From Octopus vulgaris (Eukaryota), in assembly GCA_951406725.2 (NCBI GenBank), contig OX597816.1, positions 90,086,001-90,150,000 on the forward strand: DNA of 64,000 nucleotides, read 5' to 3'. The number at the start of each line of letters is the position of its first letter. Positions within the stretch are counted from its first letter, which is position 1. The position numbers were made by a program, and so were the translations under genes. Of this stretch, positions 10,514 to 58,392 are shown one piece after another. The notes below the pieces were generated by a model, which saw only the letters and a program-made list of their open reading frames with translations, had not been told where the DNA came from and did not search any database.

Positions 10514-11499
10514 CACCTCACAACACACACCAAATAAAATTTTGTAAATGTTAAACAATTTATATGACCTCGAAACTTCAATAAAACTCATGTCAGGAAA
10601 ACAAAATATGTACCTGGTAACATGAAAAATAAATGAAAATAAATTTCTGTAGACAGTTTGAAAAATATCTATGTATAAAAGACAAGCTGTCACTCCAAAA
10701 CTCACTCTCACTTTCTCTCCCACCACCAACATAGTTTCTACATAGCAACTATGCATGATATATAATGTATTAAACAAAGAAATTTGTTTAATATTCTTTC
10801 TACTGCAAATGTACAGCAAAGTACAGTGGGTCATTTAAGTGTTTGGGTCTATGACAAGGAGCCATATTGATTATAAGATTATAAATTTCTGATTGACCTT
10901 AATAGCCTAAAACCCATTTATCCCATCCATCTGCTGTTTTCACATAAGGTAATCATTGAATTTAAGACACTGTGACTAGGGAAAACAAAATATATGGAAC
11001 ATCATGACTGGAATGTCTACAATCACAGATTTGCTCAATCAGGTATGATCTGCAGCTGAACAGCTGAACTACATCAATATGCAGATAGACTGAGGATCAT
11101 GAGAAAAATATACTTATGTCATTATTTGAAGGAATGCTATGAAAATCAGAGGGGAAAAAAGCTTCAGCAATACAGAGAACAACCATTGAATTCATATAAT
11201 TCATTCAGCATCTAAGATGTCCTGCTTCACAACTGCATATTGTCTCATCTTTGGCTAAGCTCAGTTAAAGCTAATTACCTTCATCATCATTTTATAATAT
11301 TCACTCTTCCATGCTTACATGAGTCACGCAGAATTTACTGAGGCAGATGTCTTTCATGGTACCAACAGACTTATTTCCAAACAAGGTAATATTTCTACTA
11401 TTACCAAGCAAGGTAATATTTCTACTAGCAAGGTAATATTTCTAATATTACCTTCCAAGCAAGGTAATATTTCTACTATATATATATATATATATAAAA

Positions 11500-19229: not shown

Positions 19230-20509
19230 GTCATCCCATAAGTTCTGTCCGATTTTACCTTTTTTTAAATGAAATGAAATTTAATAGTATTTTAGAACGT
19301 CTAATGGAATTTAAAATTATTTTTATGCATTTGTGTACATTTAAACTAATTAAATATTATTTTACAGAATAATAGAATTAAAATTTCTTTGATTAAAACC
19401 CTTTCTAACATGAAAGTATCCAAAGAGCATTTGAGACACATAATGCTTTATGAGTACAAAAAAGGAAATTCTGCAGCCGAAGCGACTCGAAACACATTCA
19501 GTTTATGGGAAATAATGCTTGAATGAAAGAACTTGCAGAAGATGGTTTGCAAAATTCACAAGTGGAGATTTCAGCCTTGAAGATGAAGATCGAACAGACG
19601 TCCAGTTCAGTTTGATGATAAGCTCCTTGGGGCATTACTTGAAGAAAATCCTGCATTATCAGTTGAAGAATTGGCAATAAAACTTAGTTCAAACCATACA
19701 ACTATTCATCGTCATCTCCAACAACTTGGAAAGGTTCCTAAACTTGGAAAATGGGTGCCTCATGAATTGTCCGAAAGCAACCGCAAATCCCGAGTTGACA
19801 TCTGCTCTTCTCTCCATTCTTGCGAACTCATTTCACCCTTTTTGGATAGACTTGTGACTGGTGACGAAAAATGGATCTTCTATCGAAATGTTAAACGTCG
19901 TAAACAGTGGTTTGGTAAAAGGGAAAAGGCTCAACCACAACCGAGAAGGGAACTTCATGGGAAAAAGGTTCTTCTCTCTATCTGGTGGAATTGCAAAGGA
20001 GTAATTCACTTTGAATTGTTACCACCTATTGCAACAATCAATGCTCAAGTCAACTGTCAGAAATTAGAGTGTTTGAACCAAACTCTGAAGAAAGAAAAGA
20101 CCCGCTTTAGTGAATCGAGGAGTGATGTTTCATCAGGGCAATGTGCGACCCAACACTGCAAAGATCATATCACACAAGATCGAAGAGATTGGTTGGGAAA
20201 AAATTATTGATCCACCTTATTCTCACGACCTTGCTCCTTCGGACTACCATTTGTTTTGTAGTTTACAGAATCAATTGAGGAACATAACTTTCGCCACCCA
20301 GGAAGAGGTCGAAACTGCTATTTCAGAGTTCTTCGCTTTGAAACCCAAAGAGTTTTAGATTGATGGGGTTAAAATGTTTGTAAATAGATGGAAGAAAGTC
20401 ATAGATAATCAGGGAAAGTACATTGATGATAAAATTTCAATTAAATATAACATTTGATCACTTGCATTCTTAATTCAAAATTTGGACTGAACTTGATATA
20501 TGACTTGAT
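19225..20509 (+). mobile_element. Full-length defective mariner transposon
   Basis: TIRs tcaggtcatcccataagttctgtccgatttt / aaaatttggactgaacttgatatatgacttga in TA context; ATG 19410; WVPHEL, TGDEKW, PPYSHDLAPSDYHLF; frameshifted. Confidence 0.95.
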
Positions 20510-33670: not shown

Positions 33671-36214
33671 TTACGATTCAATGTCAGATCTTTCAGAAGA
33701 TAAATCTTCAGAAGAGAGTAGATCAGCTGATGGCAACAACATAGGCATCCTCATGGTACACAAAGGGTCAGCAACATAACCATTTTTATCAACTTGTGTT
33801 AATGGAAAACGTCTTCGAAGTTCTTCAGATTGAGCTCCACTATTTCTCGAGGCTTCCATTTCCCAACGAGTTCTCATAGCAGTTACATGACCAGTTAGTG
33901 GAGGAGTTGTACGTCCTTCATTATCAGAGTCTTCAGAAAGTGCATTCAATTCTGAGATAGGATCATTCGTAATGGTATTTCCATTACTTATTAACATCAC
34001 AGCTTGGGATTGTCTACATTCCTCTAAAATAGGAACTATATTTTTGAAATCAGGTCTCTCTTCGGCATTGGCATGCCATCCTTTTTGTAAGATTCCAATA
34101 ATAGGTTTTGGAAAAGTGATAGCAATGGGAGGCCTAGTATGATGATATGCCATTTCGGCAGCAGTGGCAGCTGGTTTAAGATGTGCAAATGGCATTTCAC
34201 CTGCTAATAATTCCCAGAGACATAAAGAATAACTAAACATATCTGCTCTAATACTATACTTTGTACACTGAGTAAATATTTCAGGAGCCATCCAGCGTAG
34301 ATTTCCAGGTTGCTTTGTCATGTTATCTTCTTCATCAGATCTTAAAAAACGTGATTCTCCAAAATCAGCAACAACAGCATGGCAATCTTCTTCTAAGAGA
34401 ATATTATGACTATTAAGATCTCGATGGATAATGGGTTGTGGCAAATTATGTAAATACTCCATCCCTTTGGCAACATCCACTGCAATTGTCAGTTTAGTGT
34501 GCATATCTATTAGACGTTTTTGTTCATGTAACAAACCGAAAAGAGATCCACCTGATACAAATCGTGTAACAATGGCAAATTGACTAGGATCATCTAAACA
34601 TGCACCAACAAAATGTATAACATATGGGCTATCTAATCTTGCCAAAATTGATACTTCCCGACAAAACATATCTACATCAGATTTTGAACCAAATGAGCTT
34701 GCACGATATCTTTTAATAGCAACAACTTTACCTCGGCATTTACCCTTAAATACTTTTCCAAAAGAACCACTACCAATAGTTTCTTGAGATTCAAGGTCTG
34801 TAATCTGTAAATGGAAGTAATGTGGTAGAGTAGCTCTCAATTGGAGAACATCAATTTTTTCTCTGGTAACACTACGGAGTTTTCCTATAGGTGAAGGTAC
34901 AGATACATAACTGCCATCACCTCCAGGTTGAGTGTAGTCCCCACAAGCAGATTCATCTTGAGGTCGTTTGTGATGTTTCAATAATGTGACAATTGAATCA
35001 TGACCTTTTTCATATGCCCACATTAGTGCTGTTTGTTCCTCTTTCTTTTCACTACCACCATTTTGATCACTGACTGATGCGACCAAATTAACATCAGCTC
35101 CACTTTCTAAAAGAAAATGAACAACTCGTAAATGTCCATGGTAACAGGCACTGTGTAAAGCAGTATGTCCATCTTTTCCTTGATAATTAATATCAACATT
35201 TTGTTGTTCAAGTAAAAATTTTATTAATTCTATGCTTTTTCCTGTTGTACAAGCAGCATGCAGTGGTGTTTCACTGAAAATGTTCTCAATATTAAGACTT
35301 GCAGACCCAGTGTGTAATGTCAATGCCTTACAGATTTCCAATTTACAATAATAACAAGCCAAATGTAATGGTGTATCTCCATAGATATTAGTGATATGTG
35401 TATCAGCTTTATGTTCTAGTAGTAAACTTAAAATCTGAAGGTTTCCTGCTTTACAGCAAAAATGTATAGGACGATGTTCTTCATCATCTTTTACATTCAC
35501 ATCTACTTTTTGGTCAGATGTGCCTTGAAGAAGCAACTGTGTAATTCGGAGGTAACCTTTAGCACAAGCTAAGTGAAGAGGACGATCACCAACACCTCCA
35601 CTGATATTTATGTTGGCACCATTTGTAATAAGACTTTCAACCATTTTATCATGACCAAAAAAACTTGCAATATGTAAAGGAGAAAATTTGACAGCATCGC
35701 CGGAATTGATGCGTGCTCCATGTTCCAGTAATATCTGAGCAATTTCAAGATGCCCACACATAGCTGTAATATGAAGAGCTGTCATTCCACTGTTGCCGGT
35801 TACATTGACATCAATGTTTGCCTCACATAAAGCAACCACTGTTTCTACATCACCTTTATAAGTAGCTAGATGAAGAGCCGAAAACTGGTTCTTGGTGAGA
35901 TAAATAGCTTTTATTCCTTGTTGTAAAAAATAGTTTATAAGTTCTTTTGAATCAGCCCCAGCACCACTAATACAACAAATGTGCAATAAAGTATGTCCAG
36001 TATCAGTCTTCTCATTGACATTATCTTCATTTAAAAGTTCTTTCACTCCTGCAAGATCGCAGCGGCTGCATGCCAGCTGTAACTCTGACCATTCGGAATC
36101 CCGAGGCCGAAGGTCTTCTATAGCTTTAGAACGAAACAGTGAATAGCTTTCACTAATTTTTTTCTTAAGTTCATCAGCACATGAAATTGTTGGCCGAGAT
36201 TTATAATTACCCAT
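33671..36214 (-). CDS. TNNI3K: Serine/threonine-protein kinase TNNI3K orthologue, single-exon CDS, 847 aa
   Basis: N-terminus [19 protein letters not shown] matches vertebrate TNNI3K; ~10 ankyrin repeats; kinase motifs [26 protein letters not shown]; [15 protein letters not shown]; uninterrupted ORF. Confidence 0.97.
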
Positions 36215-37293
36215 TTCAGAAAAAAAAAAAAATTCTTTTCAAGAATTCCTTTAAAGCTCAGTGAAATATTTTATTATAGCAGTCGAGATAATTGTATGAT
36301 GATTTAAAGAGAATAATTTCCACATACTGTGAAGAAAACATTAACTTGTGGGCATTAACGCGAATAAGTAAGCATTTTCTCGACATGAGTAAGCGACATT
36401 ATAAAATTAACTTTTCTTGTACACCACTGCTTGAATTTAAAACAATTCTTTTTTTTTAGGTAACATCAAAGCCCAGCATGGTTGCATTACAATAAAAGAA
36501 AACAGGAAAATAATCAAATGAAATTTGTTGCCCTCGCAGACCATAATAATTGAATAAGGTCGTAAGGATTATTACGATATCCTAAAAACATCTTCAATCG
36601 AATATGTCGCAATGAAAAGTGCCACAAAGTAAACGCAAAATATCAGCAGTGCAATAAGAAAGTGCTGAATCTAATAGCATGCAAATATCAATAGTAAAAA
36701 CCTTTCAACTTCGATAAATATTTTCTTTCGGATATTTGTTGCTGTAAAAAAAAAAAATAGTAAGTGATGTATGGAAGTCTAAAAGTGCATCAAAATATTT
36801 ACCTCAGCCTCACTTTCAGTAGAACAACGTGAGAAAAAAAACTCAGTTATTGTAAATGTATATCATAGTTTCTATTTCGATGGTTTAAAGTTTTTACCTT
36901 ATGTAATTCATTAAGTCAACTGTGAAAACATTAAGAATGTAGTATTATATATTATTAAAATAATACTGTTATTATTATTTTTTGTTTCACAAGAATCCAT
37001 TCGTGTTACAACCTATAACCTACTATAAAGTTATATTAGTTGTTTGCATCATTCCTTTCACGAAGTTGAAGTATGGGTTAAGTAAAAAGTAAAAAAATAA
37101 TAAAAAACTCTTCTGATATAATACAAATTACACCACTGTATTCTTCACTGCATTCTTCCCGTATAATTTCCTAGCGGTTACGTTTGGTGACGGACTTGTT
37201 GGATTGAGATCTCAATGTAGGTTTCTCAAGAGGTATTGTATTTGATCTTGCCAAAATGTTGAAATAAAACAATCTCTAGTCATTAATTATATA

Positions 37294-46567: not shown

Positions 46568-46981
46568 GGATCTTTTCGGTTTGAACGGCAGTTTTTTAAA
46601 ATAATTTCCACGTAACTAAACACTTTTAAACTTCGTATACTGGTAGAATTTGTTTATAAAACATCTTTTTCTCTTGGCTTTATTGAGAAAATTCTATAGT
46701 TTGTAAGATATTTGTTGTTTTTTTCTTCAATTTCTGCAATTTCAACCAATCAATGACATCTATTGAGGTGAAAACATTCTGTGTCGTATGAATATGTCCC
46801 TCGTTTAAGAAACAGATTGGGTTTATTTACATTTGTGAATAAAAAAGACACCCTTCCCCCACCCCTTCCCCTAACCCTAAAACAGATTGAAATGCAATAG
46901 ATCGATACTAGGGTCATAATTATGGGTGACAATTTCATATGACACCGCTAGGAAAAACTGCCGTTCAAACCGAAAAGATCC
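46568..46981. mobile_element. MITE copy 2 with intact 8-bp TSD
   Basis: GGATC...GATCC TIRs flanked by CAATCTGA at 46560-46567 and 46982-46989. Confidence 0.92.
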
Positions 46982-47410
46982 CAATCTGATATATTTGTTT
47001 TCCTTTCCCTTTTTTAACCTGCCGCTCGAAACTTCAGGTTATATATTTCCTTCCCTTCGCACATACAGTACTATGCACGAATTCCATTCACTACTTTATA
47101 AGCCGTATAAGAATAAATTAGTTTGCACAGACACATATGTTTAACCAATGAAATACCGTCTTTAGTAGAAAACGATAAATATCAGTTACTTACTAAATAT
47201 GATTGTTGAATTCTATAGTCCTTTCCGAATCTAGTGCTAATAACAGGTTACTTGTTGAGAAAGACTCTTGCCACTCCCCGTTGAACCAGTGAGTGGATTC
47301 AGTTGGAAAGTCATTTTCCTTCTGAAAAGACAATATTCTGGTGACTGTCAACTTGCTGAATAACTTGAAGAGATACTAGTCTGCGCAGTATCCTATCCCC
47401 TTTGGGAAGG

Positions 47411-47665
47411 ATGGCGGACACCGAACATGATTCTCCGAATAGCGGAGGTGGTCAACAGCATCAGCAACCTGCTCAAGCTGTGGCCGAATTAAGTGAATTT
47501 ACTGCATTTTTGGGACGGATGGTCTCTGTTGTTTTTGAAGATACTACAGCATCTATCACCGAAGCTTTTAAAAGGGCGTTGGTCGATAAGACGAATACAG
47601 ATTGCATTCGGAAGTTTTTGTCTGATCCCCAAATCCCCATTTTGCTTGTGCAGAGATCATCACCG
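47411..47665 (+). CDS. DYNC1H1: Cytoplasmic dynein 1 heavy chain exon 1 (3' boundary uncertain)
   Basis: MADTEH...CIRKFLSDPQIPILLVQRSS matches human MRKFLSDPQVHTVLVERST; no phase-compatible GT donor found. Confidence 0.85.
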
Positions 47666-47683
47666 GTTTCTTATTAGGAAGTG
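47664..47683 (+). repeat. 20-bp perfect direct repeat, copy 1
   Basis: CGGTTTCTTATTAGGAAGTG; identical copy at 48264-48283. Confidence 0.97.
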
Positions 47684-48263
47684 ATCCTTTATATATAATG
47701 AAGAGCATTTTTGTCACGCCTACTTAGGTAACTTTTAGGCATAATTTAGTCCCTACTAAAGTAATTATAATTTACTTTTAATTTGTATATTATTTAAAGT
47801 TTTATCTTATATATGGGACTGTTTTGAATATCTCTGTACTTAGATTTAATATATACCTCAATGAAGGGATATGACACTACAACCAAAAAAATAAATAAAA
47901 CGTAAATATCAGTTACTTCAATAATTGTTGAATTCTATAGTTTTCCAATCTAGTGCTAATAAAAATTATTGAATCCATTCCACATGAAAATCCAGTAAAA
48001 CGGAGATTCTGAGTTAACCTTTTGGTTTAATCTTGCGTTTCAAAAAAAAAAAAAAAAGTTGAAAAAATCGACATTACTCCTTTAGGTGCGTAGTTAAATG
48101 CGTTATCAATGCGGTATTTATTGAAGCAGACCGTATATGCATATATTGGGTTAATCATATATGCACCTAGTGTGGCAACCGCTTTATATATATGTATATA
48201 AAGCATGCAGTTGTTTTGGGGTTGAGAATTTGCATATAAGTTTGTCATAATCAGCTATGAGGA

Positions 48264-48283
48264 CGGTTTCTTATTAGGAAGTG
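48264..48283 (+). repeat. 20-bp perfect direct repeat, copy 2
   Basis: CGGTTTCTTATTAGGAAGTG, exactly 600 bp after copy 1; flanks differ on both sides. Confidence 0.97.
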
Positions 48284-48829
48284 CAGTAAAATATTTTAAA
48301 CACTTTATTCTGTGGCAATTATTTTGTGTGTATTCAATGCCTTTTTTTTATTAGTTTTTGGCGTGTTGGGTTATATTTTGTGTTAATATATAACAAAGAC
48401 AAAATTTAATACAAGACAAAAGCTCATCGGGATCGTGTGAATGACTAATTCCCCTATCCACAAAATTACGTAAAATGAGAGAAAAAATATTACGTTTGAC
48501 AAAAAGAATTTCTTTTAAAATGCTTCCAGTTCTTTGCTTTATGAAGAGAGTAAAATATTGAAGTAAAATTGTATTTTGTGTGTGTTTTTAAAATACGTAA
48601 TTTGAAATGACAGTATTGTCGCAACCAACGAAAGATGACTGCTGCCCTTCACAATCGCTATAATGAATGACATCAGTGCGTTGCGTCAGTAGAATGCGAA
48701 TTGATCCCAATTGGTTATCATTTTATTTCTGAAAGTATTAGTCAATTCGGACGACAAAGCGGCCTAAAACGAAAATTTGCGACAGTGTCAGCCAATAAAG
48801 TCACAGTTAGTCGGCTCATGAAGACTTCG

Positions 48830-50045: not shown

Positions 50046-50529
50046 TGGGATCGTTTCAGCTGCTGTCACTAATTTTGCATTTTCTCAGTTTTGTTCCAAC
50101 TGTTTTCAAATTTGGTTTACCAATTTAGTTTTGTATGATAATTATGAAAATAAAATTCATTTTTGCCATGGATTAATAAAAAGCTAATGGTTCTGTTTTT
50201 TTTTATAAGCAGAACAAAGATTACTAAATATTCAGTGTTATCTACTAATTATCTCAAACAACTACTTTTAAAACTGCTGGTGTTTCCCTTTAACAGAATC
50301 ATTTTTATCTGATTTTAGTTTAAAGCTTGTGACAATTGGAGAGTGGTGAAAAGACACTAAACCTCCTAAATGATTGTACAAAGCAATGCTCGCAGTGTCC
50401 TTTCTTGTCTCTGCTATTTTCCTCCATGTACATAGAAATTTTAATGAAACAATTCGAAAGGAAAGCAGTTTAAAGATTTTTCATGCATACATACATTGGC
50501 TTTGTACATACATTGGCTTTGTACATACA

Positions 50530-51767
50530 TTGGCTTTGTAAGAAAGTAATTTCAGTTTTTTTAGTGTGAATTGAAATTTTTGTTTTTCATACAAAGAATG
50601 AACTTTAATCAATTATATATTTACCATTTTGTTCAATGACCTTTTGCCATCTTTCTAACTTCATGATTCTGTGCTCATAGAACTTCCGATTTTTATCAGC
50701 CAAAAACTGAAGCAAGTGTGATTTCAGGTCATCATCATTATTAAAAGTTTAATCATTCAGAGAATTTTGTAAACTTTGAAATAAATGGTAATCTGATGGT
50801 GCAAGGTTGGGGGCTATATGGATGTGACATCACTTCCCAACCAAGCTCCAGTAATTTTTTGTAAGTTAAGACGAGTGCGATCTAGTTCCATGGTGGAACA
50901 TGATTCCTTTACGATTTACCAATTCTGGCTGTTTTTCTTTGATTGCTTCTTCGAGTTTCATTAGTTGTTGACAGTAAACATCCGAATTGTTTGGTTCCTT
51001 GGAAGCAGCTCAAAATACACAACACCGTTGTAATCCCACCAAATTGACAGCATGATTTTTTTTTATTTTGATACAATTCAGCTTCAGTGTGATTTGTATT
51101 GGTTCATTACACTTGGACCATGATCGGATTCGATTGATGTTATTGTAGACAAACCATTTTTCATCACCAGTGATGATTCGTTTTAAAAAAAATGTTGATT
51201 TCACTGTGTTTGAGATGCATATCGCTAATACTGATTCGTTGTGTTATGTGAATCTCTTTCAATTTATGTGGAATCCAAATATTGAGATTCTTGATGAATC
51301 CAAGACATTTTAAATGGTTTTCAATTGTTGTGTGTGATACATTTAACCTCTTAGCAATCTCTCGAACAGTTATATGACAATCAGATTCAGTTATGACTTT
51401 GATTTGGTCATCATCAAATTCAGTAGGTTGACCAGAACGTAGGTCATCTTCGAAAAATCTCAAGAACGGAATTTTTTAAACCATTTCTGACAATGCCATA
51501 AACTTCACATATCTCTTTGTGAGTCTCGGCTGCTTTTTTGCATTTACGGAAATAAGAAAGCAAAATGTGTCAAATGCTCATTTTTGCACTCCATGTTAAA
51601 ATTGACACTCAACTATCAACTGTAAACAAAATTACGTGCAATTTGCTTCAAAAGTAAAAGCTAAAAGTCTGGCTATCAAATGTCAAAGGAAAAAATCATA
51701 AGCTTAACAAGTCATTAAAAAATTATAACTATTTGCAAAAAATAAAATTACTTTCTTGCCAACCCAA
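50530..51767 (-). mobile_element. Near full-length defective mariner in DYNC1H1 intron 1
   Basis: TIRs ttggctttgtaagaaagtaattt / aaattactttcttgccaacccaa; WIPHKL, ITGDEKW, HPYSPNLAPSDYHLF. Confidence 0.92.
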
Positions 51768-57959: not shown

Positions 57960-58068
57960 ATGATTCTGAAGATGTGGAAGGTGTATCAGAAAGTGAAGAA
58001 GGTCCTGAAGGAGCAGTATCTTACCTTATATCCTGTGAAATGCATTATACCAGTTCAAAGATGAGCAG
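57960..58068 (+). CDS. DYNC1H1: DYNC1H1 exon 2
   Basis: ttttag|AT GAT TCT...(D)DSEDVEG...VSYLISCEMHYTSSKMS; AG|gtaact; requires phase-1 entry. Confidence 0.9.
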
Positions 58069-58218: not shown

Positions 58219-58392
58219 CATTATTTTCATTAAGAGAGGTCAAATTGTTGAGCAGGACAAAAGTTTTCCTTCCCAGCTCCGTATCATGAACTTCAGTGAA
58301 GGATCTCCTTATGAAACTCTTCATTCATACATCAGTCATGCTGTTGGACCATTTTTCAAGTCTTACATCAAAGAAACTGGAAAAGCTGAAAG
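58219..58392 (+). CDS. DYNC1H1: DYNC1H1 exon 3
   Basis: IIFIKRG...[41 protein letters not shown]; ttgcag| and |gtataa. Confidence 0.95.

Follow-up and report, generated by a model that had tools for sequence, protein, structure and literature searches.

A likely one-off replacement at the first splice donor of a cytoplasmic dynein heavy chain gene in an Octopus vulgaris assembly

Results

The window analysed here is a 64,000-nucleotide stretch of the Octopus vulgaris genome assembly (contig OX597816.1, positions 90,086,001 to 90,150,000 of the forward strand), and all coordinates below are counted from its first letter. It contains exons of a gene for the cytoplasmic dynein-1 heavy chain, read on the plus strand. 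The coding part of exon 1 lies at 47411..47664 (+). The frame that opens with the ATG at 47411 resembles residues 17–83 of human DYNC1H1, the likeness ending at the residues RSS (E 3.6e-06), and this extent agrees with that in other sequencing runs, where the five letters AAAAG follow before a GT donor. Exon 2 (57960..58068, +, 109 nt) is preceded by AG and followed by GT, exon 3 (58219..58392, +) corresponds to residues 117–172 of human DYNC1H1 (E 5.6e-19), and more dynein exons were found close to 59.7, 60.1 and 62.3 kb. Since exon 2 opens with two leftover bases, a phase-1 donor is required upstream of it.

About 11 kb from the dynein gene and divergent from it, an unbroken 855-aa frame (33671–36238, minus strand) resembles TNNI3K, with ankyrin repeats and a kinase domain (E 1.8e-166). 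Vertebrate TNNI3K has many introns, and the intronless frame seen here may result from intron loss or be a retrocopy. A MITE-like element occupies 46568–46981 (about 410 bp) and is bounded by perfect terminal inverted repeats of 29 nt; a near-identical copy of it lies 44.7 kb upstream, at about 1881–2290. Two frames (19587–20210 and 51010–51475) look like decayed fragments of transposases, presumably of the mariner type. Intron 1 of the dynein gene also carries a 17-nt unit repeated perfectly three times in tandem (50488–50540), and some five scrambled copies of a 16–24 nt unit, spaced by 20–78 nt, are found at 11377–11480, an arrangement that resembles repeated local templated synthesis.

At the end of exon 1 begins the 20-mer CGGTTTCTTATTAGGAAGTG, of which exact copies are present at 47664..47683 (+, copy 1) and 48264..48283 (+, copy 2), so that their starts are 600 nt apart. 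A search of both strands of the window with up to three mismatches returned exactly these two matches, whereas two matches were obtained in none of 100 shuffles, and none of 100 Markov-simulated windows contained an exact 20-nt repeat of any kind. The sequences flanking the two copies are unrelated (5/30 and 11/30 identical positions). A first-pass annotation of this DNA had described precisely such a pair, with unrelated flanks and no third copy in the window, and had placed copy 1 on the DYNC1H1 exon-1 splice donor, where the dynein likeness stops; each of these points was confirmed, the last by the protein alignment given above and by the native donor found in other runs. With just two matches in the window, the 20-mer was rejected as a repeat family.

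Other properties of the pair were inspected. A search of 47000–48600 against Rfam gave no match, and no other copies were found in the window at offsets of 500, 600, 700 or 1000, the next longest run being 11 nt. Among 29 repeat pairs at most 3 kb apart, 600 was the sole spacing that is a multiple of 50. The imperfect palindrome pointed out in the 20-mer turned out not to be significant, as it folds with −0.1 kcal/mol (z −0.21 relative to shuffles), and a hairpin was discarded on this basis. A putative ETS-like motif is native at copy 2 alone. A 98-nt contig from another sequencing run (X1) resembles 48268–48302, and with 5 mismatches in 35 positions is too weak for use.

The segment between the copies (47684..48263, +) is native intron-1 sequence, present in one piece in record 1 of run X1 and record 8 of run X4, and from 47729 on in record 14 of run X5, with no match in Rfam. 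The first-pass annotation had noted in it no TIRs, poly(A) tail or convincing ORF. No pair of terminal inverted repeats bounds it among the 25 longest inverted repeats, but the segment is not featureless, as it holds a run of 17 A and a diverged copy of a block from the promoter region. The latter belongs to a direct duplication of about 70 nt, found in two copies in the window, one in the dynein promoter region (47168–47243) and one in intron 1 (47896–47962), 719–727 bp apart. Its intron copy is native, as X1 and X4 span it, and the duplication may date from an earlier event of local copying, or else be a small repeat.

The consequences of copy 1 for the reading of exon 1 were examined. In the window, no phase-1 GT is present between position 47600 and the in-frame TAG that copy 1 supplies at 47675..47677 (+), and the GT sites around the exon-1 boundary are in phase 0 or 2. 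Read-through is predicted to end after 88 residues. Other candidate phase-1 donors exist within exon 1, at 47442 (GC), 47448, 47451, 47493 and 47604 (GC), and as judged from the sequence their use would remove conserved residues in every case. The consensus for U12 introns is RTATCCTT, which GTGATCCTT resembles. No such motif lies near the site, where the native donor reads AAG/GTTTGT, and a U12 intron was rejected.

For comparison with the native state, 24 sequencing runs were listed, 20 of which share words with the window, none of these being recorded as RNA. Runs X1, X4, X5 and X20, from four studies and under three organism labels, were compared at 47250–48450; the word shares of the 16 others (0.41–0.70, and 0.39 for X19) are uninformative on copy 1. 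The runs were compared as contigs, which show presence and not absence, and in this form copy 1 was missing from all four. Runs X1 and X4 each cross the whole stretch in one contig, and they carry identical changes relative to the window at 47664–47681: four additional A, five substitutions, one additional C and one letter omitted. Run X5 ceases to match at 47664; from there its loose end has AAAAG, followed by GT and by a tract rich in T, and it rejoins the window at TGAT. The match of X20 (type “RNA?”) also ends at 47664, and continues with AAAAG and then with letters 1–25 of exon 2, which gives RSSPK/DDSEDVEG. X20 was taken as spliced on the ground that exon 1 runs directly into exon 2 in it. 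A normal phase-1 AAG/GT donor is thus present in the native allele, and it is in use. Its protein reading, PK/DDSED in X20, differs from the continuation of roughly KEDD that had been anticipated from homologues. Protein records P0151 and P0152 continue as RSSPKG, evidently by read-through of the donor. When exon 1 was searched against proteins of 148–2000 aa, a range too short to include full-length dyneins, no match was obtained.

Copy 2, in contrast to copy 1, is unaltered in the DNA runs. In X1, all nine substitutions and 16 gap letters of record 1 are located elsewhere, and the substitutions of X4 (14) and X5 (5) all fall outside it. Neither X4 nor X5 shows a loss of depth there, and the two share 14 inserted letters at unlisted positions, which might include copy 2. 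By these three DNA runs, copy 2 is ordinary intron-1 sequence, and the probable template of copy 1. Depth at the site was ordinary in the other runs (54–59).

The share of window words observed in X1 was 0.78, against 0.785 predicted from its own haplotype differences. A run from the individual that gave the window would be expected to contain about 0.96 or more of the words even if it lacked copy 1. The best share, 0.78, equals the haplotype expectation of X1, so that the source individual is apparently outside the listed runs. In the four runs compared, copy 1 occurred in no read or contig, and the 88-aa product was absent from a collection of 15 billion proteins. Two possible haplotype markers were noted near the site: the window carries a substitution at 47350 relative to 4/4 runs, and an extra base at 48014 relative to 3/3 DNA runs.

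Alignment of the window to the native sequence gives the anatomy of the change. Twenty-four native letters (C, 21 letters, TG) are replaced in copy 1, which is found in the window only, by 20 (C, 17 letters, TG), that is, a loss of 21 and a gain of 17, net −4. The 17 foreign letters (47665..47681, +) take the place of 21 native ones, donor included, between the shared C (47664) and the shared TG (47682–47683). All 17, or 20 with the junctions, are identical to native 48264–48283. The ancestral allele devoid of the insert and with intact flanks on both sides was seen directly, as none of the four runs has the insert and X1 and X4 span the site. Before the event, the start-to-start distance would have been 604 in the window haplotype, and it is 607 in X1; 600 is therefore not a conserved spacing.

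At the junctions, the identity extends over 1 nt on the left (C) and 2 nt on the right (TG). Of the 20-mers of intron 1, 1.2% show this 1+2 pattern and 5.4% reach at least 3 nt in total. Gapped likeness of copy 2 to the native tract was not significant, since 7–14% of random 19-mers score equally. The ungapped identity anchored on the right (11/20, GGTTT..TT.T) is reached at 2.2% of intron positions, and at 4.2% if either anchor is allowed, a comparison chosen post hoc. The junction and ungapped figures are mild hints of sequence-guided copying, short of proof.

Discussion

The structure is likely a one-off replacement in this sequence, and not a feature of the species or a genetic element. 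The explanation that we favour, with a probability of about one half, is that copy 1 is a private, probably heterozygous allele created by template switching in the lineage of the sequenced animal. The event would be one switch of template while DNA was being repaired or replicated: the 3′ end located at the exon/intron boundary would re-pair some 600 bp onward in the same orientation, copy 17–19 nt from copy 2, and then go back to its original site. At its junctions the switch would rely on the single shared C and the two shared letters TG, and possibly on the loose likeness between the two tracts. The allele of the window is predicted to be a null, given that no phase-1 donor remains at the boundary and that a stop follows residue 88. 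As the dynein heavy chain is essential, the allele would be heterozygous, and the assembly would display that haplotype. The replacement at copy 1 itself is without function.

Several lines of published work bear on this proposal. Templated insertions are known as germline variants, with 103 and 99 events of at least 25 bp described in two people (PMC8421209), and replication-slippage models expect templated DNA at junctions; against the proposal, the Drosophila survey that discusses them reports scant support for replication-based templated inserts (PMC4056370). In mouse Dync1h1 mutants, heterozygotes are described as mostly viable, whereas homozygotes die (PMC9687604). The local base quality shows no sign of trouble, as judged by the unbroken TNNI3K frame and the open dynein exons, and the older direct duplication of about 70 nt at the same promoter and intron may be counted as further support. 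Also against a private allele are that neither copy 1, in the four runs, nor its 88-aa product, in the protein collection, was seen outside the window, that the gapped likeness is not significant, that the spacing is a round 600, that selection would be expected to remove a null of an essential gene, and that a reach of 600 bp is far outside the norms of polymerase theta. For this enzyme, first tracts are reported to be rarely longer than 10 bp and typically templated within 30 bp, distal templates accounting for less than 0.1% of repair (PMC7165422).

Among known templated events, the lesion would be filed only under generic direct-orientation templated deletion-insertion, because its distance does not suit polymerase-theta TINS and its orientation suits neither MMBSearch calls nor four-point switches. 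With FoSTeS, MMBIR, serial replication slippage and MMB-TIs, as described in PMC8421209 and PMC4056370, it shares the replacement of native bases by a short nearby tract, the return to the original site, short junction identity and occurrence of the class in the germline. However, the MMB-TIs called by MMBSearch are inverted copies within 100 bp (PMC8421209), whereas the copy here is direct, 600 bp away, bounded by junctions of 1 and 2 nt, and known from assembled sequence alone. Polymerase-theta TINS, in the account of PMC7165422, similarly combine a deletion with a directly repeated flanking insert, in an orientation as if one broken end copied the other, in AT-rich DNA and with a very short first microhomology; their synthesis of at least 5 bp of direct or inverted repeat compares with 17 nt direct here, but their template lies by definition within 50 bp, and here at about 600 bp. 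Four-point template switches likewise produce, in one event, what mimics clustered substitutions and indels (five substitutions and three gaps in this case), but the fragment they copy is reverse-complemented (PMC5453318), and here it is direct. No report of this lesion or of an equivalent case was found in the literature searched.

The first-pass annotation had proposed as candidates a template-switch scar, an assembly error, an artificial edit, a recombination or excision cassette and a long target site duplication (TSD), of which the first three still stand. It had also pointed to the check now made against related sequence sets, and a normal phase-1 GT with no 20-mer at 47664 was indeed found in 4/4 runs. 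Its reading of such an outcome as the mark of an artefact does not follow, as a private allele predicts the same result.

An assembly or consensus error is a serious but doubtful alternative to the private allele. Here, both alleles of the animal would be normal, and a loosely similar segment of a read, originating 600 bp downstream, would have been written over the donor as the long-read consensus was built, polished or gap-filled. Such an error is consistent with the absence of copy 1 from 4/4 runs; it would escape selection, which fits a strike on an essential gene, and features such as the loose likeness and the short matching ends are those on which an aligner would rely. Window-based polishers do swap weak regions for read segments chosen by anchors, as outlined for HyPo (preprint 10.1101/2019.12.19.882506), cited by way of illustration and without implying that it was applied to this sequence. 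On the other side, the anchors described in that preprint are k-mers or minimizers, and no documented polisher route was found to a perfect 17-nt copy that returns through junctions of 1–2 nt; depth is ordinary elsewhere (54–59), and the neighbouring frames are clean.

It is unlikely that the sequence was edited after assembly, by file handling or as a planted control, 20 letters from 600 downstream being pasted over the site. That both numbers are round (20, and 600, which equals ten lines of 60 letters) speaks for it, as do the only round spacing among the 29 pairs and the fact that copy 1 was not seen beyond the window, in the four runs or in the protein collection. Yet a blind overwrite preserves length, and 24 letters have become 20 relative to sequences under three organism labels. 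An overwrite of the common allele that kept its length does not agree with the net change of −4, an argument weakened by P0151, which comes from a relative and is two codons shorter right after the donor, so that the length of this tract varies. In addition, a junction identity of at least 3 nt would arise by blind overwrite in only about 5.5% of cases, and no second event was found at offsets of 500, 600, 700 or 1000. Because copy 2 is native, the planting of one random motif at two sites is excluded.

That the 20-mers bound a functional or mobile structure (a recombination or excision cassette, a long TSD or a regulated splice switch) is close to untenable: it has in its favour the perfection of the repeat and nothing else, whereas spacer and copy 2 coexist with a normal donor in 3/3 DNA runs, no joint skipping the spacer is listed in the runs, collapse to a single copy leaves the donor unrestored, as had been noted before, the hairpin is not significant, no Rfam family was matched and none of the 25 longest inverted repeats is a terminal pair that encloses the spacer. 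The cassette and the TSD were accordingly rejected: the runs keep spacer and copy 2 and have other letters at copy 1, no empty allele free of the spacer was seen, and copy 1 replaces its target instead of duplicating it.

An extended version of the private-allele explanation, which we consider quite improbable, would have a wild animal carrying a dynein null made by a direct switch and return over 600 bp, guided by loose homeology, and would take this event together with the duplication about 720 bp apart as the mark of a recurrent signature of templated replacement over 0.5–1 kb in the lineage. If true, this signature would escape current detectors, as these are tuned to inverted copies no more than 100 bp away.

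Should copy 1 be missing from the source reads, the site would be a clean consensus or data-handling error worth tracing. In practice, the window gives a false picture of the species where the first splice donor of an essential gene should be, and gene models, probes or guides built on it would be wrong. For the biology of the octopus, copy 1 would be at most the damaged allele of one individual, and as such a tidy case of unusually long-range templated replacement.
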